Source of the DNA: Promethearchaeota archaeon
Lineage (GTDB): Archaea > Asgardarchaeota > Lokiarchaeia > Sigyniarchaeales > SOKP01
DNA: 64,000 nt
Assembly (NCBI GenBank): GCA_019058365.1
Contig: JAHPZE010000002.1
Location: 32,001-96,000 of the forward strand
Direction of reading: 5' to 3'
Under the pieces are notes generated by a model. The model had not been told where the DNA came from, did no database searches, and saw nothing but the letters and a program-made list of their open reading frames with translations. This document shows, piece after piece, positions 2,057 to 26,926 of the stretch (the stretch's first letter is position 1; each line of letters begins with the position of its first letter). Position numbers and translations under genes: made by a program.

Positions 2057-2086
2057 ATAATAAGAATCATCTTCTTATTGGAATAA
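2057..2086 (+). other. Non-canonical tRNA intron (58/59, T-loop), 30 nt, BHB
   Basis: Central helix GTTC/GAAT, bulges AA|A and AA|A, intron hairpin TAATAAGAA-tcatc-TTCTTATTG. Confidence 0.88.
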
Positions 2087-2126
2087 ATCCCTCCCGTTGC
2101 GTATTTTTCTCTATAGATTTATTGGA

Positions 2127-2729
2127 CTAAACATCGGGAAATTCTAAAGATTTTGCTTTTTGCCCTGCGAACATTCCACCCATACCACCAGAAGCCTGTG
2201 ACTGAAGCTTTAGCAATCTTTGTGTTAATGTATTAATTCCTAATGAACATAGGAAATACCACGAAGTAAAATTAATCCAAACTGAACCAGCACGGATAAA
2301 ATTTCCTATTAAAGGAATATCATTAGCATTCATAGGACTAAGGGCAACTGGAGCTCCTCTAAACAACATATTCACAATACCAAAAATTATTATCATTGGA
2401 ACAAACGTAATACAAGTTGGTTTCATCCTTTGAAGTGTCATTTTTTGTTGAGACTTTTTTATCATTGTATCTTTCCTTTCCCATCTTTTTCTAGCTTTTT
2501 TATAACGTTCAGGGTCTATTTCAGCCAAATCTATGATCTTTTGTTTTTCTTCTTCATGAGCTTTGGTTTGTGTTTGTTTACGATTTATCTCATTTGTATC
2601 TACCAACCACCTTGTTAAAAGAGTGCTTATTAATGCTGTTGTTATAGCTAATAATAAAACAAATATCATTGTTCCCGGAGGAGTGGTAATCAAATCCAAA
2701 AATGCATTTTGCAAGATTGAAAACAACAT
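2127..2729 (-). CDS. EMC3/TMCO1 (DUF106, Oxa1 superfamily) membrane insertase-like protein
   Basis: TM helix, coiled coil, 'MKP...TFVP.IIIF', 'WYFLCS' motif; directly downstream of secY. Confidence 0.88.
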   Translation of the reverse strand: MLFSILQNAFLDLITTPPGTMIFVLLLAITTALISTLLTRWLVDTNEINRKQTQTKAHEEEKQKIIDLAEIDPERYKKARKRWERKDTMIKKSQQKMTLQRMKPTCITFVPMIIIFGIVNMLFRGAPVALSPMNANDIPLIGNFIRAGSVWINFTSWYFLCSLGINTLTQRLLKLQSQASGGMGGMFAGQKAKSLEFPDV

Positions 2730-2890
2730 ATCAATATTTATTTATATTGAAATGGTAATAAACTTTTCAGATGAGGTTCTCTTCAGAAAAATCTATCAAG
2801 AATTTTAAATATTCTAATTAAAGGTATTTTTATCGTTATAATATTTACCATTTTGGCTATAATTGCCAACTATAACAGAAAAAATATTTT

Positions 2891-4369
2891 TTAGTCCATT
2901 CCTAGCAGGGCTCTCATACCCGGATACTGACTTGCAGCTAATTCTTTCGAAATCGTCTCGGCATAATTGTGGATGATTCCGATGGCAATTAGTAATCCCG
3001 TGCCTGAAGACAATGCTCTTAAAGTGTCGGCAGAAAAACTTATCACCGCAATAATGATTCCGTTTAATATAATTAATGTTGGGATATATCGTTTTAAAAT
3101 TCTCTCGATTATTTTTGATGAACTTCGGAATCCAGGAACTTCCATTTTTGAATCTATTATTTGATCCGCGATGTCACGGGGGGCGAGTCCTGAGACTTCA
3201 ACCCAGACTCGGCCGAGCAATATACAAAGAAAAATCAATACTACCAGATAAAAGATTGCTCGGAATGGATCTGCTACTACTTGATCAATTCCCAATGGTG
3301 GAGTAAGTAAATATATCAACCCAGATGTAGGTATGAGTTGGTTTCCTGAAACAGTACCAGTCCCTTCTTGAATACGAAATACTCCTATCAAATTGACCCA
3401 AAAATCAGGAATGAGTCCTCCATTTTTCGCTCGTATTCCTGAATAAGGTCCCGCGAACAATTGCCCAAAGAATAAAACGTTAGCATATAATGCATTAACC
3501 AAAATTACGGGAATATTTGAAACATAAAGCAATTTCATTGGATATTTCGATTTAAAACCTCGATAGCCTCGATATGCAAGAGGGATTTCAATGCGCGTAG
3601 ATTCAAACCAAATTACCACTAGAAAAATAATTATGGTGGTAACGATACCTAATAACGAGGGAAATGAACCTCTTAATAAAATCTGCCCTAGATTTGTGTC
3701 AGATTTTCCATCAAATAACACGGTAAAGAAAGCGATAACTATACCTCTAGGGAGATTATCTTGAGCAGGAATCCAACTGAAACAATTCCAAAATATTTGA
3801 CCGGAAACACCTGCTGCTATAAACAAGGAAACTCCGCTGCCAAGACCCCATCCTTTTTGAAGCAATTCATCTAATAATATTATTATTATTCCTGCAAACA
3901 GTAATTGAAAGAAAATAAAAAAAGCTCCCTGTATGCCTATTTCTGACAATTTCCCAAATGCTCCTCCCGCAATATATGCTATAGAATTGAAAATGGTTAA
4001 AAACACTGCCATCACTTTTTGAGCTCCACTAAACATAGCTCTGTCGTATGGATCGGACATGTTTACATTAATTATTTTAGACCCTAGAAGCAGTTGCATA
4101 ATAAGACCCGCTGTGACTATCGGACCTATACCTAATTCCGTTAATGTTCCTCTCTGACTAGCAAGAATAACTCTTAACCAATAGAAATAATCAGTTGAAT
4201 CTGCAAGGTTTACACCATATAGAGGAATATTACTTAATATTATATAAATAATAAGTACAACAGCTGTCCAAATAAACTTTTCTTTAAAAGTAACCTCGCG
4301 TTGCGGCTGTTTGATTTCCGGCATTGCTTTTACGAATGGTGTGAAGAATTTAAGGAACTTTCCAGCCAT
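2891..4369 (-). CDS. secY: Preprotein translocase subunit SecY/Sec61alpha
   Basis: GTLTELGIGPIVTAGLIMQLL, KGWGLGSGVSLFIAA, YP.KLLYVSNIPVIL, GTGLLIA motifs. Confidence 0.98.
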   Translation of the reverse strand: MAGKFLKFFTPFVKAMPEIKQPQREVTFKEKFIWTAVVLIIYIILSNIPLYGVNLADSTDYFYWLRVILASQRGTLTELGIGPIVTAGLIMQLLLGSKIINVNMSDPYDRAMFSGAQKVMAVFLTIFNSIAYIAGGAFGKLSEIGIQGAFFIFFQLLFAGIIIILLDELLQKGWGLGSGVSLFIAAGVSGQIFWNCFSWIPAQDNLPRGIVIAFFTVLFDGKSDTNLGQILLRGSFPSLLGIVTTIIIFLVVIWFESTRIEIPLAYRGYRGFKSKYPMKLLYVSNIPVILVNALYANVLFFGQLFAGPYSGIRAKNGGLIPDFWVNLIGVFRIQEGTGTVSGNQLIPTSGLIYLLTPPLGIDQVVADPFRAIFYLVVLIFLCILLGRVWVEVSGLAPRDIADQIIDSKMEVPGFRSSSKIIERILKRYIPTLIILNGIIIAVISFSADTLRALSSGTGLLIAIGIIHNYAETISKELAASQYPGMRALLGMD

Positions 4370-4735
4370 ATTTAATCAGCAACGTAAGTATTTTTGAATA
4401 GTTAGCGATAATTGCACTAACTTATTAATATCAAATTCTTAAATTTGAAGTGTAATTTTAAAAAAATAGAATTTTAAAAAAAGTTTGCGATTTAATAATG
4501 TATCTGATATGATGATGATTCAAATATTTAAAGTAGAATTATGAAATATAAAAAAAGTAAATAAAAAAATATCTATCTTTTATGTTATAAAAACCAAAAT
4601 TAATTAAATAAAATTCTAAAGATTTAATTTAAAATTGGTTTATATAAATCTTCCTTTTCTTTTATTTTTTTATTAATATTTATTATTTTATTTGCCAAAT
4701 TGCTTTCTTAGTTAATGAATTGTTTATTAGTGTCC

Positions 4736-5026
4736 TTAGAAAAGGGATCCAATCCCCGTAGGCTCTTCTTCGACTGCTTCTTCTTTTTCCTTCTTTTTTT
4801 CCTTCTTTTTTTCAGTTTTTTCTCCGGCAGGAGCTACCATTACCGGCATAGACCCAGCAGATTTTATAATTTCATCAATATCTGCTTGTTTTAGACCAGC
4901 AATTAATTTAACGATTTGATCTTTATCAACTTTCGCACCTGCGGCAGTTAATACTTTTTCTACATTCGCTTCGTTAATTTTTCCTCCAGCTTTATGTAAT
5001 AATAAGGCAGCGTAAATACTTTCCAT
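4736..5026 (-). CDS. rpl12p: 50S ribosomal stalk protein P1 (L12p)
   Basis: MESIYAALLLHKAG..INE N-terminus and acidic tail ending GIGSLF. Confidence 0.96.
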   Translation of the reverse strand: MESIYAALLLHKAGGKINEANVEKVLTAAGAKVDKDQIVKLIAGLKQADIDEIIKSAGSMPVMVAPAGEKTEKKKEKKKEKEEAVEEEPTGIGSLF

Positions 5027-5101
5027 AATATCTAACCTCTTTTTTATTTTTTTATCTTAATATTAGTAATTTTAATTGAAATATCAAAAAATCTTAATTT
5101 T

Positions 5102-5995
5102 TTATCCAAAAAGACCTCCAATACCAACTTCTTCTTCCTCCTCGGTTTCATCTTCAGCTTTTTTTTCTTCAACTTTAGATTCTGGTTCAGCCGATAATTC
5201 GATCTCCTCTCCAAAGATCATTGCTTTTATTGTATTAACCTCAGATACAGCTTTCCGAATATATTCTTCTGTCATTTCCTCTAAATAGAATGGCATTTCA
5301 AAAAGAATTCCTAGTGCCTCTCTATAAACTTTAGTGAAATCTTGTTTGAATTTTATCATATCCATATATAAGATTTCTTCAGGGATTATTTCACCGTCGT
5401 TCCAAGCAAAGTGAATTTTTATCAATGATTCTATTGGTGTAATTCCCAGCTTTTTTAAAACCGCTGCTTGCTTAACATTAACCAAATCACCAGCTTTATG
5501 GGTTCTTGTATCTTCACGAACATGTATCGTATCATTCATAATTCTCGTTGGCAATCGCAATGTCATATTCAATTCACTAATTACTTGTCCTGTGGGTAAA
5601 CCAGTATCACCTGCAGGAACCCATATATCTACAGGAGTAACTTCATTGGGTTTTGCTGGTACCATCCACTCATTTTCAAGAAATATCTTTTTTAATTCAA
5701 ATAGATCAATATTTGTAAATACAAGACTAGATTGCCCAGGAATATGATTTGCAAATTCATCCAAGTTTTTCTTTTTAGCTTCACTTTTAAATTGTTCTAT
5801 TGCTCGTAATTGAAGTGATTTTTTAGACATTCTAAATACTGCTTTTCCTCTCAAAATTTTCCTCATTGTTTGAAATTGCATGTCGCTTATATGAGCAACA
5901 TCAATTACAGCGATGTTCTTATAATTTTTAAATAAATCAACTAAATGATTAATTTCATCTATCTTCCATTGTGGTATATGTTTTTTTTTAATCAT
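5102..5995 (-). CDS. rplP0: 50S ribosomal protein P0 (uL10)
   Basis: IPQWK...V, PAGDTGLPTG, LKKLGITP, C-terminal GIGGLFG; ATG at 5995. Confidence 0.95.
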   Translation of the reverse strand: MIKKKHIPQWKIDEINHLVDLFKNYKNIAVIDVAHISDMQFQTMRKILRGKAVFRMSKKSLQLRAIEQFKSEAKKKNLDEFANHIPGQSSLVFTNIDLFELKKIFLENEWMVPAKPNEVTPVDIWVPAGDTGLPTGQVISELNMTLRLPTRIMNDTIHVREDTRTHKAGDLVNVKQAAVLKKLGITPIESLIKIHFAWNDGEIIPEEILYMDMIKFKQDFTKVYREALGILFEMPFYLEEMTEEYIRKAVSEVNTIKAMIFGEEIELSAEPESKVEEKKAEDETEEEEEVGIGGLFG

Positions 5996-5999
5996 TATT

Positions 6000-6728
6000 T
6001 CACACCTCAATACTTTTTAGGAACTCTTCTGTCACTTTCACGGGTTTTCCCATTGTAGATTTAAGATACATAGATTTAAAGTTGTTAAATTTGTGTGGCA
6101 TTTGATCAGCAATGAAATTCACTACAGCTTTCATATTTTCATATAACTTTTGCCTATCCAGAGATTTTTTACCGATCTTAGCGAAGATAATGGGTTGCTT
6201 TTTCATTTGAATCCTAATTATTTTTTTATATCGTTCATAAGCTACATTTAAATCTTCTACGCTAGAAATAATCCCATATCCAGTAGGAAAAGGTTTTGGC
6301 ATTTTACCAACGGGTCCAAGATATCTAGCTAAATATCGAGCGACATCTCTCATCATTTTATCTTCCACAACAAAAAATTCATATCTTTTAGCAAATTTTT
6401 TCTTGTATTTTTTCTCTTCATTATTCAAATTAATCAAACCGCTTGAATCTAAAGTTTCCACCCCAAGTTTTTTCGCTTCTTGTAAAATCTCATCTGACGC
6501 AATTACACAAATATTAGGTCTGTCATTTGTAATTACTTCATTTGATAAGATAATTTCTTTATCAATTCTGCTTTTTGGATCGTTTAGATTAATATCTTTA
6601 ATATTAATGATGATATCAATAGACTCATCGAATTTTCTGACTTTGCCTTTAAACCCTTCTTTCTTCATTATAGAAAAATCAATAGCAGCGTTTAATGATT
6701 TCTTTAATAATTTATCATCGACTTTCAA
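6000..6728 (-). CDS. rpl1: 50S ribosomal protein L1 (uL1)
   Basis: RKFDESIDIIIN, LGPVGKMPKP, KSTMGKP; L11-L1-P0-P1 operon. Confidence 0.96.
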   Translation of the reverse strand: MKVDDKLLKKSLNAAIDFSIMKKEGFKGKVRKFDESIDIIINIKDINLNDPKSRIDKEIILSNEVITNDRPNICVIASDEILQEAKKLGVETLDSSGLINLNNEEKKYKKKFAKRYEFFVVEDKMMRDVARYLARYLGPVGKMPKPFPTGYGIISSVEDLNVAYERYKKIIRIQMKKQPIIFAKIGKKSLDRQKLYENMKAVVNFIADQMPHKFNNFKSMYLKSTMGKPVKVTEEFLKSIEV

Positions 6729-6734
6729 ATTTTC

Positions 6735-7330
6735 TTAATCACCTCTTAAGATGTCATCAAATTCCCCTTTATCTATTTTTTTTTGGATAGCTCTTGGATC
6801 TTGTCCTTCTACTGTTAACCCCACTGATAATGCTGTTCCTAACACTGTTTTTATGCCTGCTTTAATTGTTTTATCTAAAAATTTATCTCTTTTAGCCTTC
6901 ACTACATTTTGAACTTGATCAAGTGTCAAATTTCCTATTTTTGTTTCTGAACAACTAGCACTCCCTTTTTCAACACCTACCTCTTTCAGCAATAATGATG
7001 CAGTAGAAGGTGTTTCTATAAAAATTTCAAATTGCTTTGTCTCCGGATCACATTCAATTCTAACGGGTACGGTTAGTCCCCTAAATACCATTGTCTGCTT
7101 GTTGATTTCGTCAACCACATCTTTAATATGTGCATCGAAAATCGAAATAATTTTCGTTTATGCCTGTGGGACCAACAGCAGGACCTTTACCATAATTTGA
7201 CAAAAGCGATATGCTTTATGCAATAGGCGGCCCTCCTGATGCATTTGGGGTCTAATCGAAATGATTATTAAAGATATACACTCCCACCAGTCACAAGAGC
7301 CTTTACAACAATTTTTCCTTTTTCACTCAC
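6735..7330 (-). CDS. rpl11: 50S ribosomal protein L11 (uL11), split by three BHB introns; exons 7330-7281, 7243-7223, 7186-7158, 7129-6735 (495 nt, 164 aa)
   Basis: The ORF track shows only the C-terminal 127 aa. The spliced N-terminus reads [46 protein letters not shown], the conserved uL11 GG.A..GPP.GPA.GP.G.N motif. GTG start at 7330 is preceded by GGTGAG. Confidence 0.92.
7130..7157 (-). other. rpl11 mRNA intron 3 (28 nt, near-perfect BHB)
   Basis: Central helix GCAU/AUGC, bulges AA|A and AC|A, intron helix CGAAAAUU-auuuc-GAUUUUCG. Confidence 0.9.
7187..7222 (-). other. rpl11 mRNA intron 2 (36 nt, relaxed BHB)
   Basis: Exon helix AGGGCC/GGUCCU, central helix GCCU/UGGU (one U.U), cuts AU|U and AA|A; inner hairpin AAAGC-auauc-GCUUU; contains an in-frame UAA. 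Confidence 0.83.
7244..7280 (-). other. rpl11 mRNA intron 1 (37 nt, relaxed BHB/BHL)
   Basis: Central helix UGGG/CCCA, cuts AG|U and AA|U; inner hairpin UAAUC-auuuc-GAUUA; contains an in-frame UAA. Confidence 0.85.
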
Positions 7331-7385
7331 ATACTCTCACCGTTTTTTTTAATAATTCTTGGTTTAAAAAATATCCTAAAAGGTA

Positions 7386-7456
7386 AGAACGCGAAATTAC
7401 TAATTATTCCTATTTCAATATTTTTATTATATCGAAACCGCATTAATTTGCGTCCT
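7386..7456 (-). promoter_or_regulatory. Structured 5' leader of the rpl11-rpl1-P0-P1 operon
   Basis: Outer stem AGGACGC-AAATTA/TAATTT-c-GCGTTCT enclosing a 10-bp stem GTTTCGATAT/ATATTGAAAT; TATA-like TTTAAAAA at about 7483-7476 just upstream. Confidence 0.5.
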
Positions 7457-7534
7457 AAGTTTCTTAGAATAATTTTTTTTAAACTTAGTAAGTTTTAGAA
7501 TAAAGCAACCTTAAAAAATTTTTCCAGAATTAAA

Positions 7535-7720
7535 TTAAAATCTACAACATAGCCTACGACCATGATTTAGATCACACTTTAAATATTCTTCAGATAAAAT
7601 ATTCATTATTGTATCACGATCCAAGTTTACTTTCTTGATAATATCTTCAATCTCAATTCCAGGAGTCGATATTAAGTCAAAAATCTTTTTCTTAACTTCT
7701 TCACTAATTTCTGAGCTCAT
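7535..7720 (-). CDS. Small hypothetical protein, possibly HTH-like
   Basis: 61-aa ORF with ATG start and amphipathic helical pattern; ends CCRF. Confidence 0.6.
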   Translation of the reverse strand: MSSEISEEVKKKIFDLISTPGIEIEDIIKKVNLDRDTIMNILSEEYLKCDLNHGRRLCCRF

Positions 7721-7752
7721 TATGATGAAATATAGATTTTCCTTAATAAATT

Positions 7753-7917
7753 TTAACTATTAAATCTGATTATTTCGTAAGCAATTTACTAATTAAGTAT
7801 TATTCAATCTGCGACTCCACTCTCAGCAACACTTTTAGGCATTCCAAAAGGTATATTTGTCACTTTAGATTCTGTTAGTGTTTTTACACATTCTGTATAG
7901 GAACGAAAAAGTATCAA
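7753..7917 (-). pseudogene. Degraded C-terminal fragment of CheB-type methylesterase
   Basis: Translates KTLTESKVTNIPFGMPKSVAESGVAD*IILN**IAYEIIR, resembling the CheB C-terminal 'T.A....S.VFGMPK.....G.AD..LP...IA..I', with three in-frame stops. Confidence 0.6.
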
Positions 7918-7943
7918 TTCTAAGAAACTTGAATTATGCCGTT

Positions 7944-8627
7944 TTAATCCCCTTCTTCTAAGATTACCTTATGTGCTATTTTACCAATTTTTTCTATCGA
8001 TGCTTCAATTAAGTCTCCTGGTTGAATCGGGCCTACTCCACTAGGAGTTCCAGATGCAACAATATCTCCAGTGAATAATGTGACAAATTTGGAGAGATAT
8101 GAGAGAATTTCAGGAATTTTGAAAATCATATATTTTGTATTTGATTGTTGACGAACTTCTCTATTAATTTGTAATTTAATATTTAAATTATGAGGATCTT
8201 CAATCTCACTAAAAGGTACAATTCTCGGGCCAATTGGTCCAAATGTATCGAAATTTTTGCTTCTATACCATGGTAAATTAATATTTCTATCACTTATCTG
8301 CATTTTCCTCGCGGTTATATCTAGAAAAATAGTGTATCCTTCGATATATTCATGAGCGTGCTCAATTTGAATATTCTTACATTTCTGAGAAATTATAAAT
8401 GCTAATTCTACTTCGTGATCTACTTGATTATATTCTTGACTATCATACAGTATTTTAGGATAGATAATTGGATTCCCATCAGTCACCAATGTATTTACAG
8501 TTTTCCCGAAGAATACTGGATCTTTTGGTACTCGTGCCTTCATCTCCCTTGCATGATCTACATAATTACGTCCCAAACAAATTATTTTTGTAGGACTTAT
8601 CTCATTTTCTCCAATTTTGATAATAAT
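7944..8627 (-). CDS. Fumarylacetoacetate hydrolase family protein (paralog 2); start uncertain
   Basis: KIICLGRNY, DHEVELAFII, RSKNFDTFGPIGP, GDIVASGTPSGVG. Homology to paralog 1 extends upstream of the TTG at 8576 to about 8621-8627. Confidence 0.9.
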   Translation of the reverse strand: MIIKIGENEISPTKIICLGRNYVDHAREMKARVPKDPVFFGKTVNTLVTDGNPIIYPKILYDSQEYNQVDHEVELAFIISQKCKNIQIEHAHEYIEGYTIFLDITARKMQISDRNINLPWYRSKNFDTFGPIGPRIVPFSEIEDPHNLNIKLQINREVRQQSNTKYMIFKIPEILSYLSKFVTLFTGDIVASGTPSGVGPIQPGDLIEASIEKIGKIAHKVILEEGD

Positions 8628-8630
8628 TTT

Positions 8631-9305
8631 TCATTCACCTTCCATAACTACTTTATTTGTAAGCGTTCCTATCTTTTCTATTGTTGCTTCAATAAGATCG
8701 CCTGGTTGTATAGGCCCAATTCCACTTGGAGTTCCTGTAGCTATAATATCTCCAGGCTCAAGGGTAAAAAATGTCGTAATATACTCCATAAGTTTGGGAA
8801 TTTTGAATAATAGATGCTTAGTATTAGAAAATTGTTTAATCTCTCCATTTAACATCAATTCAATATTTAAGTTATGAGGATCTTTGATTTCATCAGTATC
8901 AACTATTCTTGGACCTATCGGCCCAAAAGTATCAAATGATTTAGAACGAAACCATGGTAATTTAGATACTATATCTATTGCTTGCATTTTTCGTGCAGTA
9001 ATATCATTAAATATTGTATATCCAAGAATATAGTTATATGCTTCATCTTTTGGAACAAATTTACATTTATCTTTTATAATAAATGCCAATTCTACCTCAT
9101 AATCCACTCTATTATATTTGTGTTGGTTAAATAAAAATTTAGGATAAATTATCGGCTCTCTATCTGAAATCAGGCAGTTTAAAGTTTTTGGAAAAAGAAC
9201 CGGCTCTTTTGGAATGTTCAAACCTGTTTCTTCAATATGGTCCATGTAATTTGTACCGATGCAAATAATCTTCGTCGGATTTATCGTTTGGAGCCCAATT
9301 TTCAT
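8631..9305 (-). CDS. Fumarylacetoacetate hydrolase family protein (paralog 1)
   Basis: KIICIGTNY, DYEVELAFII, NDITAR, KSFDTFGPIGP, GDIIATGTPSG. Confidence 0.93.
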   Translation of the reverse strand: MKIGLQTINPTKIICIGTNYMDHIEETGLNIPKEPVLFPKTLNCLISDREPIIYPKFLFNQHKYNRVDYEVELAFIIKDKCKFVPKDEAYNYILGYTIFNDITARKMQAIDIVSKLPWFRSKSFDTFGPIGPRIVDTDEIKDPHNLNIELMLNGEIKQFSNTKHLLFKIPKLMEYITTFFTLEPGDIIATGTPSGIGPIQPGDLIEATIEKIGTLTNKVVMEGE

Positions 9306-9499
9306 AATACATTTACAATTTTTTGAAAAAATTGAAAAACTCAGTCTAATTCTTTATGATTTTAAATACTTTAATAGATTAAAACTCTTTAATTTCATAA
9401 ATCTTTGATATCTTCCTTAACAAAATTTAATTTTTCACTCGTTTTAAAAAAAAATATAGTAAAAAAAATTAATAATATAAGAAAAATTGTTAAAATCAA

Positions 9500-10081
9500 G
9501 TGAGAAAAATGAGTGAGCAGAAACCTTACAATGATGAAGAAAAGAAAAAGTTATTACATAGTACTTTAAACAAAAAGATAGCTGCCTCAGGTATTTTCAT
9601 TGCAGTTGGATTAATTTTGAGTTATCTTAATCCATTTGGATATTTCTTCATATTTGGTACGAAAATAAATCCATTTGCTCATTTTATTAATGCTATAACC
9701 GGTGTTTTGATTGGTTTAATTTTTTCATGTATAACAGCACTAGGGATTGCCATCCTTCGATTTTCATTCGCAATTGGGACAATACATGCGTTTCATGGAG
9801 GTATTACCGGTGCTTTTGTAGTTGGAATTGTTTCTCACTTTTTACGTAAAAAATTTCCTAAATATGTCGAGTTAGCTGCTTTTACAGAACCATTGGGAAC
9901 AATCTTCCTAGGAGGAACTATTGGGCATTTAATTGCTCCAATAGGAAGCATTTTTGCGATTGAGAGTCTCTATACATATTGGGGACTATTCGCATTAAGC
10001 TGTATTCCTGGAAGTATTATGGGATTCATAATTCTAATGGTTTTAAAACAAGCAAAAATAACATGGGAGGATTTTTTTTAA
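9500..10081 (+). CDS. thiW: ECF transporter S component, ThiW family
   Basis: P.AHFIN...GVL.G, LR....GT..AF.G...GA, EPLGT..LG motifs; multi-TM. Confidence 0.8.
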   Translation: MRKMSEQKPYNDEEKKKLLHSTLNKKIAASGIFIAVGLILSYLNPFGYFFIFGTKINPFAHFINAITGVLIGLIFSCITALGIAILRFSFAIGTIHAFHGGITGAFVVGIVSHFLRKKFPKYVELAAFTEPLGTIFLGGTIGHLIAPIGSIFAIESLYTYWGLFALSCIPGSIMGFIILMVLKQAKITWEDFF

Positions 10082-10108
10082 AAATCAATAATTAATGAAG
10101 CAATTTTT

Positions 10109-10696: not shown

Positions 10697-10784
10697 ATTT
10701 TGTTAAAAAATATTTAGGCAAAATAATTTTAATTAATGTCCAATTAATTTATCTACAAATTATATTTATAACTAATTGACGAAG

Positions 10785-11429: not shown

Positions 11430-11456
11430 AATTTTCTTTTAAATTCATTCTAAATT

Positions 11457-12209: not shown

Positions 12210-12239
12210 ATTCATCAATCTTTAGAATCTTACATTTGT

Positions 12240-12851: not shown

Positions 12852-12863
12852 CTTTAATTCTTC

Positions 12864-12933: not shown

Positions 12934-12991
12934 TATTTTAATTTAATTTTAAAACATAAGTTTAAACTCTATTTATATTAAAAAAACTGAG

Positions 12992-14516: not shown

Positions 14517-14522
14517 GGTGAT

Positions 14523-16950: not shown

Positions 16951-17124
16951 TATACGAAACAATGAAATGAATCAAAAACCTAAAGCCTATTCAATTTAGT
17001 AGAATAAAATTAGAAAATAAGAAAAAAAAAATTATCGTAAAAGAATTATTCTATTTTCAAAAAATTTCTCAAAACTAAAGCTTTATCCGTAATTTAATGC
17101 TGGAAGAAAATACTTAATTCTAAT

Positions 17125-17472: not shown

Positions 17473-17509
17473 GTTTTTCTTTCTCTTCTTTCTATTAATT
17501 TTTATACAA

Positions 17510-18349: not shown

Positions 18350-18363
18350 AATCATTTTTAAAA

Positions 18364-20655
18364 TTACCAGGTAATTATAACATGAGTTCCCTTATTTTTT
18401 TCAATAAAAATCTTTCCATCCATTTGTTTGGTTATAGTGGATATAAGTTTTAACCCCATTGTATCTGAATTGTTATAATCTACATCTTTTGGAAACCCTA
18501 TTCCATTATCATACACATCTAATAATATTCTATTGTATATGGTTTTTTTCAGTGTAACAATAATTTTTCCTTTATCATTTTTAGAAAATGCGTGTTTTAA
18601 TGAGTTAGATACAAGTTCATTTATAATTAAGCCACAAGCAATAGCTTTGTCTAGACTGAAATCAATATCTTCAATATTCAATTGTAGTTTAATATGTTTG
18701 GAATTTGCTAAATAAGCTTTAAATAGATTATTAACAAGGTTTTTTATGTATTTTGAAAGACAAATCTTATTCAAGTTTTCGGAGTTGTATAATGCTTGGT
18801 GTATTAGTGCCATAACTTTAATACGATTTTGGAAATCCTTAAAAATATGGAGAATTCTTTCATCTTTTACATATTGTTCTTGTAGTACTAATAAACTTGA
18901 AATTATTTGTAAATTGTTTTTCACTCTATGATGGATTTCTTTCAGGAGTATTTCTTTTTCTGCTAGGGAAGATTCCAGTAGGGATTCATTCTTTTTCTGC
19001 TCAGATATATCAATTATATTTATATGTATGGCAGAAACTCCTTGAAATTGAATCTTTTGTAAAAATTGTCGAATATATAAATAATTGCCATTTTTATGCT
19101 TCATTCGGATATCGGATTGAAATGAGGATATATCTTCGTTTAAAATTTGATTATATTTTTCAATAGTCGTTTGTAAATCTTCAGGATGAATATGCTGGGT
19201 TATGGTGTTTAGATTCCAAAATAAGAGTTCATTTATTGAAAATCCTAAAATACTAGATATCCCTTTGTTTGCAAAAATTATTCGTCCATCAGCAATGATA
19301 AGTGTACCTAATAAGGATTGCTCTATAAGCATTCGATATTTTTCTTCACTTTCTCTTAATTCTCTTTCAGTAGAATCACGAACAATAACACCTGCAAGAA
19401 CATTGGCTATAGATTGTAAAAAATTGATATCATCTTTTGAAAATATCCGATGTTCTTTTGTATGAGCTCCTAAAATACCAAATGGGGTGTTTGTTCCTTG
19501 AATAATAACACTCATTCCGCTTATAACATCATGATCCGCAAGAAGTTTTGGGGCATAAAATCGAGTTTCCGTCTTTAGGTTTTCTACTATTACTGGAGTA
19601 GTTTTTAGTAATGTAAAACCTGCTTGTGAATTTATATTATTTTCAACAGTTGCATTTCCAACTAATCCTTTATGCCAACCCACTCCTGCCCGTAATTTTA
19701 AAAATTTCTTATCAGGAAGAATTTCAAGTACCTTTGTAAACTCAACATCCAATATTTCTGCAAGTAAAGATGTTGCTTTTTTAAATAAATTATCAATTTT
19801 TTTTTCTGTAATTGTTTCCAAACCAAATTTGGCAATTAAAGCTTGTCTATGGATATGATTTTCAATGAATTGTTGGATTTTTATGCTTTTCGTTAAATCT
19901 TGGGAAACACAGAGAATTCTGACTATTTTATTTTGTTCATCAAAAATCGGTGCTAGATTTGATGAAAGTTGTATATAATTTCCATTCTTTTTTTTAAATT
20001 GATATTCAATATTTTTAACAAATGTGCCTTCCAATACTTTTTTAATTCCGTCGGTAAGAATCATTTTATCATTAGGATGAATTAACTTATAAATGCTTAA
20101 TGAATCAAGGGTTTCTTCTTTATTATATCCTAAAAAATCAGTAAAAGCATTATTAACATCAAGAAAATTTGTGTTTAGATCTAAGGTATAAATCATAAAT
20201 TTAGAAGTTTTAAGCAATGTTTGAAATTTCTCTTCAGGTAAACATTGAGAACAATTAAAATCTTTTTGCTTATTGTAGGAATTTGTATTTTTTATCTCCC
20301 GTTTAATAGTTGGAATTAAGCGATTTAGATTATCTTCATTAATATAATCATTTACTCCAGTTTCTATCAATGAAATCATCGCTTTTTCATCTATTTCTTT
20401 TCCAATAACAATATAGGGAAGTAATATTTTTTTTTCTTTAATGATTCTTAATATTTCTATTCCGTAAAGAGTCCATGCGTCATAGTCGGATAATAAAATA
20501 TCCCACGCTTTTTTAGATAACACTGAATATAAATTGATATGATTTTCGATGAATTCCAATTGCACTTTGAAGTTATATACTTCTAACTTTTGTATTATTG
20601 AAGATGCCACATCTTTAGAATCAGAAATAAATAATATCTCACATTTTTCACTCAA
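18364..20655 (-). CDS. Hybrid sensor kinase (REC-PAS-GAF-PAS-HisKA_2/HATPase)
   Basis: LLKEIHHRVKNNLQIISSLL, NELVSNSLKHAF, DNGIG, GLKLI; PAS (IHP.D) and GAF segments. Confidence 0.93.
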   Translation of the reverse strand: MSEKCEILFISDSKDVASSIIQKLEVYNFKVQLEFIENHINLYSVLSKKAWDILLSDYDAWTLYGIEILRIIKEKKILLPYIVIGKEIDEKAMISLIETGVNDYINEDNLNRLIPTIKREIKNTNSYNKQKDFNCSQCLPEEKFQTLLKTSKFMIYTLDLNTNFLDVNNAFTDFLGYNKEETLDSLSIYKLIHPNDKMILTDGIKKVLEGTFVKNIEYQFKKKNGNYIQLSSNLAPIFDEQNKIVRILCVSQDLTKSIKIQQFIENHIHRQALIAKFGLETITEKKIDNLFKKATSLLAEILDVEFTKVLEILPDKKFLKLRAGVGWHKGLVGNATVENNINSQAGFTLLKTTPVIVENLKTETRFYAPKLLADHDVISGMSVIIQGTNTPFGILGAHTKEHRIFSKDDINFLQSIANVLAGVIVRDSTERELRESEEKYRMLIEQSLLGTLIIADGRIIFANKGISSILGFSINELLFWNLNTITQHIHPEDLQTTIEKYNQILNEDISSFQSDIRMKHKNGNYLYIRQFLQKIQFQGVSAIHINIIDISEQKKNESLLESSLAEKEILLKEIHHRVKNNLQIISSLLVLQEQYVKDERILHIFKDFQNRIKVMALIHQALYNSENLNKICLSKYIKNLVNNLFKAYLANSKHIKLQLNIEDIDFSLDKAIACGLIINELVSNSLKHAFSKNDKGKIIVTLKKTIYNRILLDVYDNGIGFPKDVDYNNSDTMGLKLISTITKQMDGKIFIEKNKGTHVIITW

Positions 20656-21125
20656 ATTTCATACACTACACTAAATTTTCATTTTTTTATTAACTTTAAT
20701 ACTCTATAGAATTCCTTTATTTATAATATTGGAATTTTCATTAAAAAAATATCTGTTTATATTAGCTTCATCCAAGCTTTCATTCTAATTTTCTTAATAA
20801 TATTAACAATATGCTTTAAAATAAATCTTTTGGATACAAATCGAAGTTGGTTAATACTAGTTATCTAAGATAGATAAAGTAAAAAGGAAGACTTAATTAT
20901 TAATTTAACAAAGGATTTTTATGCTAATATAACTTTCAAGGACATTATTCCATTTTTCAATCGTATTCTATCAAATTTATCAGTTTAAAAAATTTATTAA
21001 TATAGTAAAATTTATAAATGAAAAAATGTAAGCAAAACTCATATAAAGAATTTTGATTTTTCATTCAAAATTTTTTATTTCAAAAAAAATAAAATAATAA
21101 AAATAGGAAAATAGGAGAAAAAAAA

Positions 21126-21611
21126 ATGGTAAAACTAACAAATGAAATGAAGGAAGGTTTACGTGTTCCCGGAAAAGGGGGCAGTTTGATTTATTTAGCA
21201 ACATCATCCATAGATGGAAAACCAAATATAGCCGCAATGCGCTACGTAGATTCATATAAAGATGATAAAATTCTAGTTTCAGATATGTTTTTACTAAAAA
21301 CTAAAGCGAATCTTAAAGAGAATCCTGAATGCATTATAACAATATGCCATCCAATGGATTCTGGAAGAGACTGGGTATTTAAAGGTAAGGCAATTGATAT
21401 TGAATACGGTTTTCCTCCAGATTTCGATTGGTATGGTGCTAAAGCTAAAGATATCTTAGATGGTTGGGGTGATTGGCATCATAAAGAACCTCCAGATGAG
21501 GTTCCTCCAGATGTTGTATATTCAAAACCAGCACAACGTGGTGTTGTTGTACTACATGTAGAGGAAATATATTCTATTGAAAAAGGAAAAGTAGGTGAAA
21601 AAATACAATAG
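21126..21611 (+). CDS. Pyridoxamine 5'-phosphate oxidase-like FMN-binding protein
   Basis: YLATSSIDGKPN, D.F..KT.ANLKENP, KGKA, V.EIYS. Confidence 0.82.
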   Translation: MVKLTNEMKEGLRVPGKGGSLIYLATSSIDGKPNIAAMRYVDSYKDDKILVSDMFLLKTKANLKENPECIITICHPMDSGRDWVFKGKAIDIEYGFPPDFDWYGAKAKDILDGWGDWHHKEPPDEVPPDVVYSKPAQRGVVVLHVEEIYSIEKGKVGEKIQ

Positions 21612-21623
21612 GAGGGAAGAAAA

Positions 21624-22040
21624 ATGGTAGTAAAACTAACTGATAGAATGAAAGCTTGGATTAAAATTGGTTGTCATTTGAATGTGGCAACAAAAAAGGG
21701 GATCCCATTTGTCACGGTTTCAAGAAATGTGAAATCTGTTTCTGATGATGAGGTAGTATTTGCTTTATCTCAGGATGAATATTCTGTTATTAAATCAGCT
21801 TTATCTGAAAATCCCTGGGTCGCATTTGGAGTATCTCGAGCAGGAGGTATTCGTGCTTGTTATCAATTCAAAGGTAAAGGAACAGTTGACAAAAAAGGAG
21901 ATATCTATAATTTAAAAGTAAAAATATCTGAATTGTATTGTACCAAACCAGGATGTTATGCTGGACAAAGACTTGATACTAAACCCGCTAAAGAATGTGA
22001 AGAATGGGAACATGGTCTCTGGACCGATTTACCAAAATAA
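21624..22040 (+). CDS. PNPOx-like split-barrel paralog
   Basis: VATKKGIP, L.ENP.VA, YQFKGKG, YCTKPG.YAG.R. Confidence 0.72.
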   Translation: MVVKLTDRMKAWIKIGCHLNVATKKGIPFVTVSRNVKSVSDDEVVFALSQDEYSVIKSALSENPWVAFGVSRAGGIRACYQFKGKGTVDKKGDIYNLKVKISELYCTKPGCYAGQRLDTKPAKECEEWEHGLWTDLPK

Positions 22041-22137
22041 TAAACTTATTACTTAAATATAATTTTTTTTTGAAAATAAATTAGGATTGAAATTGAAATT
22101 TTATTGGATTATATAATTAAAGGATAATACAAATAAG

Positions 22138-22455
22138 ATGACTGATATTGAAACTGAAGAAGGAAAAGAAATTAAAGAAAAAGTGAAGAAGAAACCAAAA
22201 AAACCTCCAAAACAAATGCCGTGGTTTATGCCCTTTATGTGTGATGGGTGTGGTGATTGCGTTGATGCTTGTCCACAAGGCGGTATTGCATTATTAGGTC
22301 TCAATAGAAAGGTTCCATCTGCTTGGTTAATTGCTCCAGATTATTGTATTGGATGTGCAAAGTGTGCAGAAGCTTGTCAAAGCTCAGCTGTTCAAATGAC
22401 GGCATATGTGGAACGAGCTATTGAAAGATATAAGACAAAAAAACCTTTCCAATAA
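22138..22455 (+). CDS. 2[4Fe-4S] ferredoxin-domain protein
   Basis: CDGCGDCVDACP and CIGCAKCAEAC. Confidence 0.88.
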   Translation: MTDIETEEGKEIKEKVKKKPKKPPKQMPWFMPFMCDGCGDCVDACPQGGIALLGLNRKVPSAWLIAPDYCIGCAKCAEACQSSAVQMTAYVERAIERYKTKKPFQ

Positions 22456-22507
22456 AGTTTTGTAAAATAAATAAATTTTGAACTGAAAATAAAAGAGGAA
22501 ATGAAAA

Positions 22508-23572
22508 ATGGTATTTGATTTAAGAAGATGTGATTTTTCAAAATGCAAGGGAGAATGCCTTGCAAGATGTTTATTCGTAGATTACGATGAAAAACAAGCT
22601 AAAGCAGATATGGCCAAATTAATTCATCAGCAACCCGCGGATATACTTGCTAAATGTGTAACATGTTATGCGTGTAATGAATTTTGTCCGCGAGGAGCCA
22701 ATCCATGGGATTTGATTAACCAAATGCAAGAAAAAACAGGACTATACATATATCCGGAAGAGGCTAAAAAAACAGCATTAGGGTGGGCAAAAAAAGAGGA
22801 TAAGATTATTAAAGGAGATCCTGGTAAACCAGCAGTGTCCATAGGAGGTTTTGCTGATGCTCTTCCATATGATAAAGTATTTAAAGGCAAATTATTTGAG
22901 GGTTTATCTTTAATAATGGGAGGATCATACGCGTGTAGAGCACCCGAAACTCATATGTGTGATGCGAATTCTTGTTTAGATAATCTACCTTCAATGATTA
23001 AAAATCTTACAGACACAGGTTATAAAGAGATAATTTTCTACCATGATGCTTGCTATGGGTTTGTAACCTCAGAAGCATTAGCAATGATGATTGAAGTTCC
23101 TTTTAAACCTATACACATTATGGAATATATTAGAAATTGGCTCCGTGATCACAAGGATCTTATTACACCATTGAATATGAAAATTGCTTATCAACGACCA
23201 TGTACATCACGATATAACCCCCATGGAGAACTTAAAGAAAATTTTTATGATTGGGTAGAACAAACTTTTGAATTACTGGGTTGCGAGCTTTTAGACCGAA
23301 AATATCAAAAGGAGAACTCTATGTGTTGTAGTTCTGGTATTTTTCCAACCCAGAAAAATCGAGCTATGGGTTACGTTAAAAAAAACCTTCAGGATGCTAA
23401 GGATGCTGGAGCTGAAGCTTACATTACATTTTGTCCAATTTGTACTGCAGTAATGCGGCAAACAGCTAAAAGTATGGAAATGGAACCATATTATATTATT
23501 ATGCTAGTGCAAAAAGCTCTTGGAGAAGATTTACCTATAGGTGGCGCTGGAATAGGTGTACCTGTTCATTAA
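22508..23572 (+). CDS. HdrD/GlpC-like Fe-S oxidoreductase (CCG domain)
   Basis: CVTCYACNEFCP, YQRPC..R, CCSSG, CPIC. Confidence 0.82.
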   Translation: MVFDLRRCDFSKCKGECLARCLFVDYDEKQAKADMAKLIHQQPADILAKCVTCYACNEFCPRGANPWDLINQMQEKTGLYIYPEEAKKTALGWAKKEDKIIKGDPGKPAVSIGGFADALPYDKVFKGKLFEGLSLIMGGSYACRAPETHMCDANSCLDNLPSMIKNLTDTGYKEIIFYHDACYGFVTSEALAMMIEVPFKPIHIMEYIRNWLRDHKDLITPLNMKIAYQRPCTSRYNPHGELKENFYDWVEQTFELLGCELLDRKYQKENSMCCSSGIFPTQKNRAMGYVKKNLQDAKDAGAEAYITFCPICTAVMRQTAKSMEMEPYYIIMLVQKALGEDLPIGGAGIGVPVH

Positions 23573-23611
23573 TATTTTTCTAAATTTTTTTTTTTTTAAA
23601 AACATAGGTGA

Positions 23612-24367
23612 ATGATGTTGAGAGTTTTGATTAGTGTTCGTTCATTAGAAGAAGTATTACCTGCAACAAGGGGTGGTGCAGATATTATTGATCTTAAAAA
23701 TCCTAATGAAGGTTCATTAGGAGCTGCTTTTCCCTGGATTATAGATGAATTAAGAAATTTTGATACGAATATGAGATTAAGTGTAGCAATAGGAGATATG
23801 CCAAATTTGCCAGGAACAGCGTCTCTCTCAGCATTAGGAGCTGCTTATTCTGGAGCTAATATAATAAAAGTTGGACTTCTTGGCCCTAAAACTGTAGAGG
23901 AGGGAATATTTTTATTAAAAAAAGTCGTACAAGCAGTAAAAGATTATGATCAAAACATTTTAGTTGTGGGAGCAGGTTATGCAGATTTTAAAACTTTTAA
24001 TGGAATTGATTCATTGAAAATTCCTGAAATATGTAGGTCAGCTGGAGCAGATGTAGCAATGTTAGATACTTTCTCAAAGGATGGGAAGAAATTGTTTGAT
24101 TTCTTAGATTTAAAAAAGTTAAAACTGTTTGTGGATAAAGCTCATAAACTTAATTTATTTGCAGCTCTAGCGGGATCACTCGAATCAAAAGATATTAAAA
24201 CTATCAATAGTCTAGGAACAGATATTATTGGATTCAGAGGTGCTGCTTGCAGTGGATCCGATAGGAAAAATGGAGTTGTAGAAATTAATAGGGTAAGGAA
24301 AATTGTAGAAATCTCACAAAATCTAAATAATAATGGTAGAATTTTAAGCTCTACAACAATAATATAA
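23612..24367 (+). CDS. mfnB: (5-formylfuran-3-yl)methyl phosphate synthase (4-HFC-P synthase)
   Basis: LISV....E......GADIIDLKNPNEGSLGA.FPW, S.AIGD, KVGL, MLDT..KDG, LAGSL, G.RGAAC. Confidence 0.92.
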   Translation: MMLRVLISVRSLEEVLPATRGGADIIDLKNPNEGSLGAAFPWIIDELRNFDTNMRLSVAIGDMPNLPGTASLSALGAAYSGANIIKVGLLGPKTVEEGIFLLKKVVQAVKDYDQNILVVGAGYADFKTFNGIDSLKIPEICRSAGADVAMLDTFSKDGKKLFDFLDLKKLKLFVDKAHKLNLFAALAGSLESKDIKTINSLGTDIIGFRGAACSGSDRKNGVVEINRVRKIVEISQNLNNNGRILSSTTII

Positions 24368-24438
24368 TTTTTTTTTAAAGAAAATATATTTTATTACAAA
24401 AATTTAATTCAAAATTGATAAAAGTTAGGTTAAAAATT

Positions 24439-24693
24439 ATGAATAATATTAAAATTAAGCATTTTCCTGAAAAATGTTATGCTTGTAAAACTTGTGAATT
24501 AATATGTTCTTATCATCATACGAAAACTTTTCAACCATCAATTTCAAGTATTTCTGTTGAGAGAGACCATATTAACGGGATTTGGCACTGGACTTTGAAA
24601 GATACATGTGATAAATGCCAAGATGAAGAACAGCCTTTATGTGTAAAATTTTGTTTCTATGACGCAATTACTATTGAGGAGGGTGTAGATTAA
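24439..24693 (+). CDS. Small 4Fe-4S protein (AOR partner)
   Basis: CYACKTCELICS.HH, CDKC......PLCVKFC. Confidence 0.85.
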   Translation: MNNIKIKHFPEKCYACKTCELICSYHHTKTFQPSISSISVERDHINGIWHWTLKDTCDKCQDEEQPLCVKFCFYDAITIEEGVD

Positions 24694-24694
24694 G

Positions 24695-26614
24695 GTGAGT
24701 AGATATAATATTAAGGGTGGTATCACTGGAAAAATACTTAGAGTGAATTTAAGTGACGAGAATGTAAGAGTAGAAGATAATAAATACGCAGAGAGATGGA
24801 TTGGAGGGAGAGCTCTAAGTAGTTGGATTCTCCTAAATGAATTAGAACCTAATACAAAATGGTCTGATCCAGAAAATTATCTTATCCTTGGTGCAGGTGC
24901 CCTAGTAGGAACGATTGCACCCGCAGCATGTCGAATGAATATTGATACTTTAAATGTCTTCAATAATGGTAAAGGATCATCTAATTTTGGGGGTCATTTC
25001 AGCCCTGAAATGAAATTTGCTGGTTTTGATCAGATTGTTATCAGTGGAAAAGCTGATAAACCAATATACCTCTTTGTAAACGATGGAAAAGCAGAAATAC
25101 GTGATGCTAATCATTTATGGGGTAAAACTACATATGAGACAGAAAAAACACTTAAAAATGAGCTAAATGACAATAAAATTGAAGTTGGGTCAATAGGACC
25201 AGCTGGAGAAAATTTAGTTCATGGTTCTTCTATCATAGTAGATTGTGGCCGAACAGCTGGAGGGTCTGGTGTTGGTTGTATAATGGGTGATAAAAAAATA
25301 AAATCAATTGTAATCCGCGGCAATAAGGAAGTTAGGGTTGCTTACCCCGAGAAATTTGTTGAAAGAGTATATGAAGCATTTCAAAAAATTATGAAACGCC
25401 CTACAGCTAAATTATTTAGAAAAAAAACACTTGGAGGACTAGTATATAACGATTCTGAACAATTCGATGAACTCTGGGAGATGATGCATACTGTAAGAAA
25501 TGCTCAAGATGTACATTGGTCCCGTGAAAAAAGAACAAAAATGATGGGAAAGAATGGCGTTGGTAAGTTTTTCAAGAAAATTCAGGCGTGCTATATCTGT
25601 CCAGTGGGGTGCCAGCCATATTCAGAAATTGAGGAAGGTAAATTCAAAGGTGCTAAGGGTTTAGGATATTGGATAAACTCTGTAATGTGGTCAGGTAAAA
25701 TGGATATTACTGATCCAGATGCATCATTAAAATATCATCTTCGTGCCAATCAGTTAGGTTTGGATGGAGATAACTCTTCCGTCGTGATGGCATGGGCATT
25801 TGAGGCATATGAGAAAGGATTATTAACGAAGGACGATACTGACGGTCTAGAACTAACATGGGGAAATGTAGATGCTATGATGGAATTACAAGAAAAAATT
25901 GCGTACCGTAAAGGATTTGGAGATTATCTCGCAAATGGCGTTATTGAGGCAGCAAAAAAACTAGGAAAAGGTTCAGAAAAATTTGCTATTCACCAAAAAA
26001 ATCAAGACACTCTTGATCCTTATCGAATTGCAAAAGGTTGGTCTCTAGCATGCGCAACATCACCCGTGGCAGGGCGTCATATGAGAGGTAGTATTAATAT
26101 ACCGATTGCATTTGGTCCTAAAGGAGCTAAATTTAATCCATATTCTTATGAAGACCAGCCTCCAATAGTATTCTGGGAATTGCGTTCAAAAGAAATAGAG
26201 GATATAATTGGAATTTGTGTATATGTTGGTACTTGGTCAGGAGTATATGCACTTGAACCCTCTGATTATGTTAGCTTAACTAATTTAGCACTTGGAACTA
26301 ATTTAAATGAAGAAGAATTTATGTTGCTTGGACAGAAATCATATAACTTAGAAAAAGCTTTTAATACATTACATGTGGGATTTACCCGTAAGGAAGATTT
26401 ACCGCATCGAAGATTTTTTGAAGACCCAATTCAATCTGGACCCCATAAAGGTGAGAAATTAGATATCAATAAGTATAATTCAATGCTGGATAAATTTTAT
26501 GAACTTCATGGTTGGGACAAAAAAACTGGATGGCAAACCCGTGAAACTTTAGAAACTTTAGGATTAAAGGATGTAGCTGAAAAATTAGCTAAAGCAGGAC
26601 GTTTAATTGAATAA
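24695..26614 (+). CDS. Aldehyde:ferredoxin oxidoreductase (W-pterin) family
   Basis: GKILRVNLS, SIGPAGENLV, G.G.IMG.K..K, CYICPVGC, GLD, LP.RFF, FY..HGWD..TG. Confidence 0.93.
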   Translation: MSRYNIKGGITGKILRVNLSDENVRVEDNKYAERWIGGRALSSWILLNELEPNTKWSDPENYLILGAGALVGTIAPAACRMNIDTLNVFNNGKGSSNFGGHFSPEMKFAGFDQIVISGKADKPIYLFVNDGKAEIRDANHLWGKTTYETEKTLKNELNDNKIEVGSIGPAGENLVHGSSIIVDCGRTAGGSGVGCIMGDKKIKSIVIRGNKEVRVAYPEKFVERVYEAFQKIMKRPTAKLFRKKTLGGLVYNDSEQFDELWEMMHTVRNAQDVHWSREKRTKMMGKNGVGKFFKKIQACYICPVGCQPYSEIEEGKFKGAKGLGYWINSVMWSGKMDITDPDASLKYHLRANQLGLDGDNSSVVMAWAFEAYEKGLLTKDDTDGLELTWGNVDAMMELQEKIAYRKGFGDYLANGVIEAAKKLGKGSEKFAIHQKNQDTLDPYRIAKGWSLACATSPVAGRHMRGSINIPIAFGPKGAKFNPYSYEDQPPIVFWELRSKEIEDIIGICVYVGTWSGVYALEPSDYVSLTNLALGTNLNEEEFMLLGQKSYNLEKAFNTLHVGFTRKEDLPHRRFFEDPIQSGPHKGEKLDINKYNSMLDKFYELHGWDKKTGWQTRETLETLGLKDVAEKLAKAGRLIE

Positions 26615-26726
26615 TAAATATAATAATGAGATTATATATCTACTTCAATTATTCTCTTTATTATAATCGAATAAATCATTACAAATAAAAATTAAAATAA
26701 AAAAAATAATATTTCTCTTAGATGAA

Positions 26727-26926
26727 TTACTCCTTTTTAAATAGATTTCCACATCCCCCACACTTTACATTTTTTGCATAAACCGGAGTACCCTGCTTTA
26801 GCAGTATGCTGAAAGAGCAATACTTATACTGTAGTAAAGTACATTACTTTTATCCGGTTCTTCATGAAGCATGCGTGGATTATCATTTCCACATTTAGGA
26901 CATTTTACTCTTTTATAATCAGCCAT
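26727..26926 (-). CDS. Small zinc-ribbon protein (56 aa) split by one BHB intron; exons 26926-26826 and 26796-26727
   Basis: Spliced product MADYKRVKCPKCGNDNPRMLHEEPDKSNVLYYSMQGTPVYAKNVKCGGCGNLFKKE joins two CxxC halves that lie in different frames. Absent from the ORF track. Confidence 0.82.
26797..26825 (-). other. mRNA intron (29 nt, relaxed BHB) in the zinc-ribbon gene
   Basis: Central helix CAGU/GCUA (3 of 4 pairs), cuts AU|A and AA|G, intron hairpin AGUA(U)UGCU-cuuuc-AGCAUACU; the unspliced frame stops at UAA inside it. Confidence 0.8.

Follow-up and report, generated by a model that had tools for sequence, protein, structure and literature searches.

Archaeal introns are thought to need the bulge-helix-bulge (BHB) shape at their ends alone, with the interior being ignored. 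Splicing of archaeal mRNA has been documented for about two genes (PMC10485636). The introns of cbf5 in Crenarchaeota (Watanabe 2002; Yokobori 2009, PMC2738675) and of HVO_1309 in Haloferax (PMC10485636) are short BHB introns located in coding sequence, often with a relaxed motif, which are cut by EndA and show patchy gain and loss, and the Crenarchaeota EndA cutting the cbf5 intron is an (alpha-beta)2 enzyme (PMC2738675). Introns of this kind occur in a stretch of 64,000 nucleotides (nt) from a Promethearchaeota archaeon of the Lokiarchaeia (contig JAHPZE010000002.1, positions 32,001 to 96,000; hereafter the window, C34:32001-96000), which is part of a 4.74-Mb draft genome (GCA_019058365.1, here called G000). 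Whereas cbf5 and HVO_1309 each represent one gene per genome, at least 14 protein-gene sites are interrupted in G000, with three of these in one ribosomal-protein gene, and most of its tRNA genes are interrupted as well. Nearly all of the mRNA introns carry a five-nucleotide apex of the form (A)-N-N-U-(C/A) at a nearly fixed distance from the predicted cuts, and the inside of these introns would thus be read by something, probably the splicing machinery or a helper.

A sequence-only reading of the window had reported five introns of 28–37 nt, each with a hairpin capped by a pentaloop, and both their places and their folds were confirmed. The interrupted genes and their introns are as follows (H denotes the central helix; lengths of helices in base pairs, bp):

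1969..2101, plus strand: tRNA-Ser(GGA) gene with two introns; removal of both inserts gives a tRNA-Ser with an ARAGORN score of 116.5
2007..2025, plus strand: canonical 37/38 intron of tRNA-Ser, 19 nt, without apical pentaloop and outside the ~30-nt class
2057..2086, plus strand: T-loop 58/59 intron of tRNA-Ser, 30 nt, full hBHBh' motif with H 4/4, inner helix 9 bp and outer helix 4 bp
2067..2071, plus strand: UCAUC apical pentaloop of the 58/59 intron, from folding of the intron interior
6735..7330, minus strand: rpl11 (uL11) gene, four exons of 50, 21, 29 and 395 nt, Pfam L11
7280-7244, minus strand: rpl11 intron 1, 37 nt, H UGGG/CCCA, loop AUUUC at 7262-7258, in 6/30 genus genomes
7222-7187, minus strand: rpl11 intron 2, 36 nt, H 3/4, outer helix 6 bp, loop AUAUC at 7212-7208, in 6/30 genus genomes
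7157-7130, minus strand: rpl11 intron 3, 28 nt, H GCAU/AUGC, inner helix 8 bp, loop AUUUC at 7148-7144, in 10/30 genus genomes
26727..26926, minus strand: small Zn-ribbon gene, two exons, 56 aa, two CxxC motifs
26825-26797, minus strand: Zn-ribbon intron, 29 nt, loop CUUUC at 26815-26811 (AUUUC in most relatives)

Joining the rpl11 exons after cuts at the second bulge base gives a uL11 of 164 aa, of which 137 are identical to the intron-free orthologue in the relative G023, and the joined Zn-ribbon frame reads YYSMQGTPVY, matching the intron-free relatives L060, L075 and L080. The tRNA-Ser 37/38 intron measures 16–19 nt in 15 relatives, with the 58/59 intron present in 11 of these and absent from the other four. 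The fold of rpl11 intron 3 is well supported (z -3.3), and a competing lowest-energy fold appears for rpl11 intron 1 and for the Zn-ribbon intron of this genome once flanking exon is included. Neither ARAGORN nor Rfam (gathering score) reported a match in the intact window DNA, because the window's tRNA is doubly interrupted; there was likewise no Rfam covariance-model match at gathering score in the window to group I or II introns or to known small RNAs, and inserts of 28–37 nt are too short to hold a ribozyme core. The non-coding leader of rpl11 (7331-7480, minus strand) contains blocks conserved across the 30 genus genomes and several predicted hairpins, has no Rfam match, and is a candidate cis-regulatory RNA.

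The inserts are real introns on every genomic criterion, and we infer from their sequences that they are removed by splicing. All are precise, as their removal restores the tRNA or the reading frame, and exact empty sites exist in relatives. The 30 genus genomes display six kinds of rpl11 intron pattern (none in 14, intron 3 alone in eight, and two genomes each with all three, introns 1 and 2, intron 1 alone or intron 2 alone), and the combined alleles place the intron 1 junction exactly at the BHB cut site. There was a single rpl11 match per genome, and the full-length matches in genomes outside the family have long open frames of 162–219 aa. The Zn-ribbon intron is found in 27/30 relatives, with the other three reading straight through, and in an alignment of 25 alleles 97.5% of cells were paired, with double changes at 7/11 pairs, exceeding all shuffles and slid controls. 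Across the 18 mRNA introns described below, the central helix is complete (4/4) in 13 and 3/4 in five, flanked by two 3-nt bulges with the junctions after the second bulge base, and the outer helix is frequently absent, giving a relaxed HBh' motif. The genome is AT-rich, which could be taken to favour unspliced inserts (pseudogenes, assembly errors or recoding) with a coincidental loop match, but the inserts break essential genes (rpl11, rpoA', EF-1alpha), recur across independent assemblies with compensatory changes, occupy all three frame phases and have ends coinciding with BHB cut sites, and we regard this explanation as scarcely credible.

For a census of mRNA introns, the proteome of G023 (81% complete) was aligned to G000 and vice versa, allowing jumps of 14–90 nt without any motif, and this was complemented by a BHB scan. 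Spliced alignment gave 12 introns in G000, in rpl11 (three), rpoA', AMP phosphorylase, mevalonate kinase, a B12-binding domain gene, EF-1alpha, acyl-CoA dehydrogenase, CoA activase, JAMM and DhnA aldolase, and four in G023 (EF-2, metallo-hydrolase, PurA and Zn finger), with host gene names assigned from conserved motifs. Addition of the Zn-ribbon and rnhB introns brought the number to 14 in G000 and 18 in total. These 18 introns are 26–37 nt long (15/18 at 28–32 nt), are present in every frame phase, and all lie inside highly conserved motifs. The de novo BHB scan, when scored on inserts shared with G023, was dominated by false frame jumps, and only the empty-site cases and rnhB were retained; its loop-blind ranking placed eight known introns within the top 45, together with three plausible new ones, while loop rates of the unvalidated candidates were at background level. 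Probable 30–31-nt mRNA introns from the loop-blind search are located on C24 (plus strand, near 5758), where the intron falls in the conserved carB motif IGQAGEFDYSG, on C49 (plus strand, near 53860) and on C46 (minus strand, offset 915). In relatives (L211, L223, L238, L258, L245, L069), rpoA' and the Zn-ribbon gene are also interrupted at a second site, and rpoA'' has an intron as well. Twenty further regions beside rpl11 yielded no new intron positions.

The loop signature was assessed on a held-out set of 14 mRNA introns, which excluded the five introns above and had been found without use of the loop. Their folds showed a pentaloop in 10/14 (2.1 expected given a hairpin) and the sequence ANNU[C/A] in 9/14 (0.2 expected), compared with 14–16% pentaloops and about 1% ANNU[C/A] in background genomic hairpins. 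When the five bases centred on the hairpin axis were scored, all 14 had an odd symmetric apex (5.5 expected) and U at position 4 (U4; 2.3 expected), with NNNU[C/A] in 11/14 (1.1 expected), and an energy-free method returned U4 in 11/14 against 3.2 expected. The sequence-only reading had named a common five-nucleotide loop ending in UC and had suggested a genome-wide comparison with shuffles and genomic hairpins. That comparison revealed a strong length and sequence bias, in which loop size and U4 stood well beyond chance, but the strict NNNUC form was found in 4/14 only (0.07–0.3 expected; 0.6% of background hairpins), which is above chance without being a rule. The signature is (A)-N-N-U-(C/A), broader than 'ending in UC'. 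The apex lies 8–11 nt from the 5′ cut and 13–16 nt from the 3′ cut (10/15 nt in rnhB), and in the 36- and 37-nt introns the extra bases all fall on a single side. Further sites that turned up afterwards in metagenome contigs and relatives, without use of the loop, have AAUUC/AUUUC (second rpoA' site), AAUUG (rpoA'') and ACAUA (second Zn-ribbon site), and the loop-blind G000 candidates have UAUUC, AUAAC and, by eye, AUUUC.

The apex is conserved as well as enriched. All 25 Zn-ribbon alleles have U4 and either C or A at position 5 while their stems turn over, and by parsimony U4 did not change, against 2–4 changes at each of the remaining loop positions and 5.2 on average at four-fold sites, with position 5 moving solely between C and A. 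Alleles of the first rpoA' site, which range from 30 to 40 nt and have unrelated stems, all keep a pentaloop with U4 (AUUUA, UCUUC, UAUUC, AUUUC). This pattern argues for purifying selection, with the reservation that the alleles are kin, so that the counts overstate independence, and that a single column has limited power.

A profile search identified 43 tRNA introns in G000 and 33 in G023, with four further G000 introns found later. Non-canonical tRNA introns resemble mRNA introns in length (51/61 measure 28–32 nt), whereas the hairpins of mRNA introns and 37/38 introns are built differently, with a mean outer helix of 1.9 versus 5.2 bp and a mean inner helix of 5.2 versus 1.8 bp. The notion of a loop shared by tRNA and mRNA was borne out for about a quarter of the non-canonical tRNA introns, as NNNU[C/A] is present in 8/32 in G000 (2.1 expected) and 5/25 in G023 (1.8 expected), but for none of the 37/38 introns, and U4 itself separates the classes (14/14 in mRNA versus 11/32 in non-canonical tRNA introns, Fisher P 2e-5). 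A looser form, RNNN[C/A], is enriched across all ~30-nt introns, and among orthologues of the T-loop intron of tRNA-Ser the apex measures 5 nt and has a final C in 12/12 cases (UC in 5/12), so that the purine at position 1, the C at position 5 and the loop size are kept, but not U4. The tRNA and mRNA introns therefore share a size class and hairpin build, and the strict apex is mainly an mRNA trait. A tRNA-Ile(UAU) gene (G000 C34 near 25520-25694; G023 near 741700) is interrupted three times in G000 and four times in G023. Two intergenic regions also contain similar hairpins: a GC-richer stretch conserved in G023 (C34:247480-247660 in G000; L181:979-1160) with a 27-nt BHB-like hairpin and loops AAUUA/AUAUA, which has no open reading frame or Rfam match and is possibly an unknown RNA, and a 28-nt insert relative to G023 near C34 position 194641 of G000, with a minus-strand hairpin capped by AAUUC, which is perhaps an intron of an untranslated or non-coding RNA.

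With respect to the splicing machinery, G000 encodes two EndA paralogues (C26, C12), and its rtcB gene adjoins the archease gene; the sequence-only reading had asked for the EndA subunit type and the RtcB/archease neighbours to be examined. The Tyr/His/Lys triad is present in the alpha paralogue, whose alignment with the specificity loop of the A. pernix enzyme is gapless and includes the equivalents of K44 and R46, which have been tied to relaxed substrates (PMC3241643), while the beta paralogue lacks the His. By sequence, the genome thus has the complete set expected of a BHB system, an EndA for relaxed motifs, RtcB and archease. Head-to-head with archease and near rtcB is a gene (C35:28111-28608; L188:3386-3886) for a NusA-like tandem-KH protein of 166 aa, with a paralogue on C51. 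Its homologues have a KH_2 match in 44/54 cases, and the best match of the predicted protein model (pLDDT 71) is archaeal NusA (E 1e-7, TM about 0.4). With a single query, the gene was detected in 37/40 family genomes and in 0/10 genomes of other families, and it adjoins archease in 23/24 family genomes. The adjacency of the genes makes a role of this protein in splicing a lead and no more; a NusA paralogue of the usual kind could be encoded here, and divergence could conceal the gene elsewhere.

We favour, with moderate confidence, the reading that the apex is a recognition element placed one helical turn from the bulge, which compensates for the missing tRNA body. The introns have one standard build of ~30 nt, in which two 3-nt bulges flank a central helix of 4 bp, there is mostly little outer helix, and an inner hairpin of roughly 8–10 pair steps lies under the 5-nt apex. 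From established chemistry, an (alpha-beta)2 EndA would cut after the second base of each bulge, and RtcB and archease would join the exons to restore the frame. Selection would keep the apex because EndA, or else an RNA-binding helper, reads it at a distance of about one helical turn from the bulge; it could replace the tRNA body and the outer helix, both absent at mRNA sites, so that the BHB could form and be cleaved before ribosomes arrive. Such a role would account for a rule that holds almost without exception in mRNA, loosely in non-canonical tRNA introns and not at all at 37/38. Recognition of the loop by a splicing co-factor, as the sequence-only reading had suggested, is to this extent in agreement with an apex conserved under selection. 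Several observations weigh against this interpretation: the apex ends in U in 3/18 mRNA introns and one candidate intron lacks U4, loop positions 1–3 vary as often as stem positions, about three quarters of the non-canonical tRNA introns lack the signature yet must be cut, and the highly variable interior of the cbf5 intron has been taken as independence from EndA recognition (PMC2738675). Furthermore, pentaloop size and U4 had been foretold, but A at position 5 was admitted only after the held-out data had been seen. Selection might also act on the RNA itself, with the apex serving as a fast-folding or stable cap (an A-C, A-A or G-C pair between positions 1 and 5 over a triloop) that aids an AU-rich hairpin without a protein reader, which would suit the retention of purine-1 and C-5 rather than U4 in the tRNA-Ser orthologues, the breadth of the RNNN[C/A] enrichment, and the known recognition of structure rather than sequence by EndA. 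However, the stable UUCG and GNRA tetraloops are absent from the 18 mRNA introns though easily reached, other strong hairpins of the genome have no such loop bias, and the fixed distance is left unexplained, which makes a purely RNA-intrinsic rule somewhat unlikely. A more specific proposal, that the apex belongs to an mRNA-splicing system of this Lokiarchaeia family in which a dedicated RNA-binding helper, with the NusA-like KH protein as candidate, reads this signal and links splicing by EndA and RtcB with transcription before the ribosome arrives, is speculative and, in our estimation, doubtful; if a helper does read the apex, mRNA splicing would be assisted by a trans factor in a prokaryote closely related to eukaryotes.

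The resemblance among the introns is best read as a shared requirement and not as recent copying. The sequence-only reading had proposed a common origin with spread from tRNA into mRNA by reverse splicing, as has been proposed for transposition of Thermoproteales tRNA introns, but the comparison of 51 introns gave no similarity above structure- and loop-keeping shuffles (mean identity 0.458 versus 0.455, maximum 0.73 versus 0.72), and no introns at unrelated sites of one genome reached 80% identity. The longest word found elsewhere in the genome was the same for introns and shuffles (14.5), no donor copy of any intron was found in the G000 genome, junction repeats were near random (1.2 versus 0.9 nt) without target duplication, and neither an RVT_1 reverse transcriptase nor a Y1 transposase was found in this draft genome. 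The dispersed copies, target duplication and mobilising enzyme that mark mobile mini-elements (MITE, REP or casposon-like) are accordingly missing from these data, and stems and H helices have no sequence in common between sites. Cross-tRNA intron families amount to 1.5% in other Asgard lineages, versus 28% in Thermoproteales (10.64898/2026.10.13.758758). The 9-mer reported as common to rpl11 introns 1 and 3 is indeed identical (7254-7262 and 7140-7148), but it occurs nine times in the window and consists mostly of loop and AT-rich stem. Intron 3 also matches intron 1 and the tRNA-Met 37/38 intron at 12/13 bases, each with a chance expectation of ~0.17, and 17% of loop-keeping shuffles produce a 12/13 match between two mRNA introns; two tRNA–mRNA intron pairs reach 70% identity. 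Sharing of the 9-mer and 13-mer is not significant by itself, although the 12/13 matches would allow for single local copying events. As the introns are not copies of one another and no donor was found, recent tRNA-to-mRNA spread is unsupported, and recent copying as a general route is largely refuted and in our view very improbable, with an old common origin still conceivable. T-loop mimicry as source of the shared 9-mer was rejected, since the other loops do not fit. A CRISPR/Cas1 origin, considered because the introns are ~30 nt, was rejected too: G000 has a single Cas1, encoded in a normal CRISPR-Cas locus, G023 yielded none, and target duplication is absent. That locus (G000 C24:36800-56000) comprises a Type I-like CRISPR-Cas operon with a long array behind it, and another array, based on a different repeat, is located at C30:43655. 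Alternatively, the apex may be a birth mark, which arrived with ~30-nt hairpins through some unknown route of insertion or from an ancestral mini-element of old date and which decays in older tRNA introns, so that the mRNA introns would show it best because they are younger. This would fit the single 28–32-nt length peak in both classes, the patchy presence, which implies many recent gains or losses, and the enrichment of degenerate tRNA-intron versions (4- or 6-nt loops ending in YC, 9/33 versus 2.3 expected). We nevertheless find it unlikely, as U4 and C/A5 stay in place through repeated changes in the stems and at the four-fold sites of the gene, and the sites lack common stem and H sequences. 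Decay of the apex in the oldest mRNA introns is also partly contradicted by the genus-wide Zn-ribbon intron.

A recognition element of this kind would be significant in several respects. In this Asgard lineage, essential genes (uL11, RNA polymerase A', EF-1alpha, EF-2) depend on introns with a conserved, positioned interior signal, which offers a mutable handle on what lets enzyme-spliced introns colonise translated mRNA and on how new archaeal introns arise, and standard annotation truncates the genes bearing them. Neither mRNA introns of Asgard archaea nor pentaloops in introns turned up in a literature search that took in few subscription papers. BHB mRNA introns themselves were already known; new here are the quantified apex rule, its spacing and conservation, and the contrast between mRNA and tRNA introns. 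Freedom of the interior from sequence constraint is part of the usual, though not strictly defining, description of a BHB intron, and it does not apply here, as U4 and C/A5 of the apex are conserved; in cbf5 the interior is highly variable, whereas these introns have a conserved apex at fixed spacing.

Short introns are also removed from mRNA without a spliceosome by IRE1 and RtcB (HAC1, XBP1), a case mentioned in PMC4090602, with a tRNA-type ligase and a stem-loop in which sequence matters. IRE1 cuts within conserved 7-nt loops, whereas in these introns the predicted cuts are in the BHB bulges, the conserved loop is left uncut and the nuclease would be EndA. Multiple introns and introns at non-canonical positions in Asgard tRNAs (bioRxiv 10.64898/2026.10.13.758758) are similar in their many independent gains at BHB-forming sites, little cross-copying and two EndA paralogues; that study focuses on Jordiarchaeia and Atabeyarchaeia, with a median length of 22–23 nt, treats neither mRNA nor hairpins and leaves the arrival route open, whereas the introns described here peak at 30 nt, include mRNA and have the apex signature. 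Finally, the transposition of tRNA introns among Thermoproteales (Fujishima 2010, in the summary of PMC4090602) likewise involves many non-canonical positions and a broad-specificity EndA with an extra loop; in that summary near-identical introns are found at different sites, whereas the introns of G000 have only their build and apex in common.

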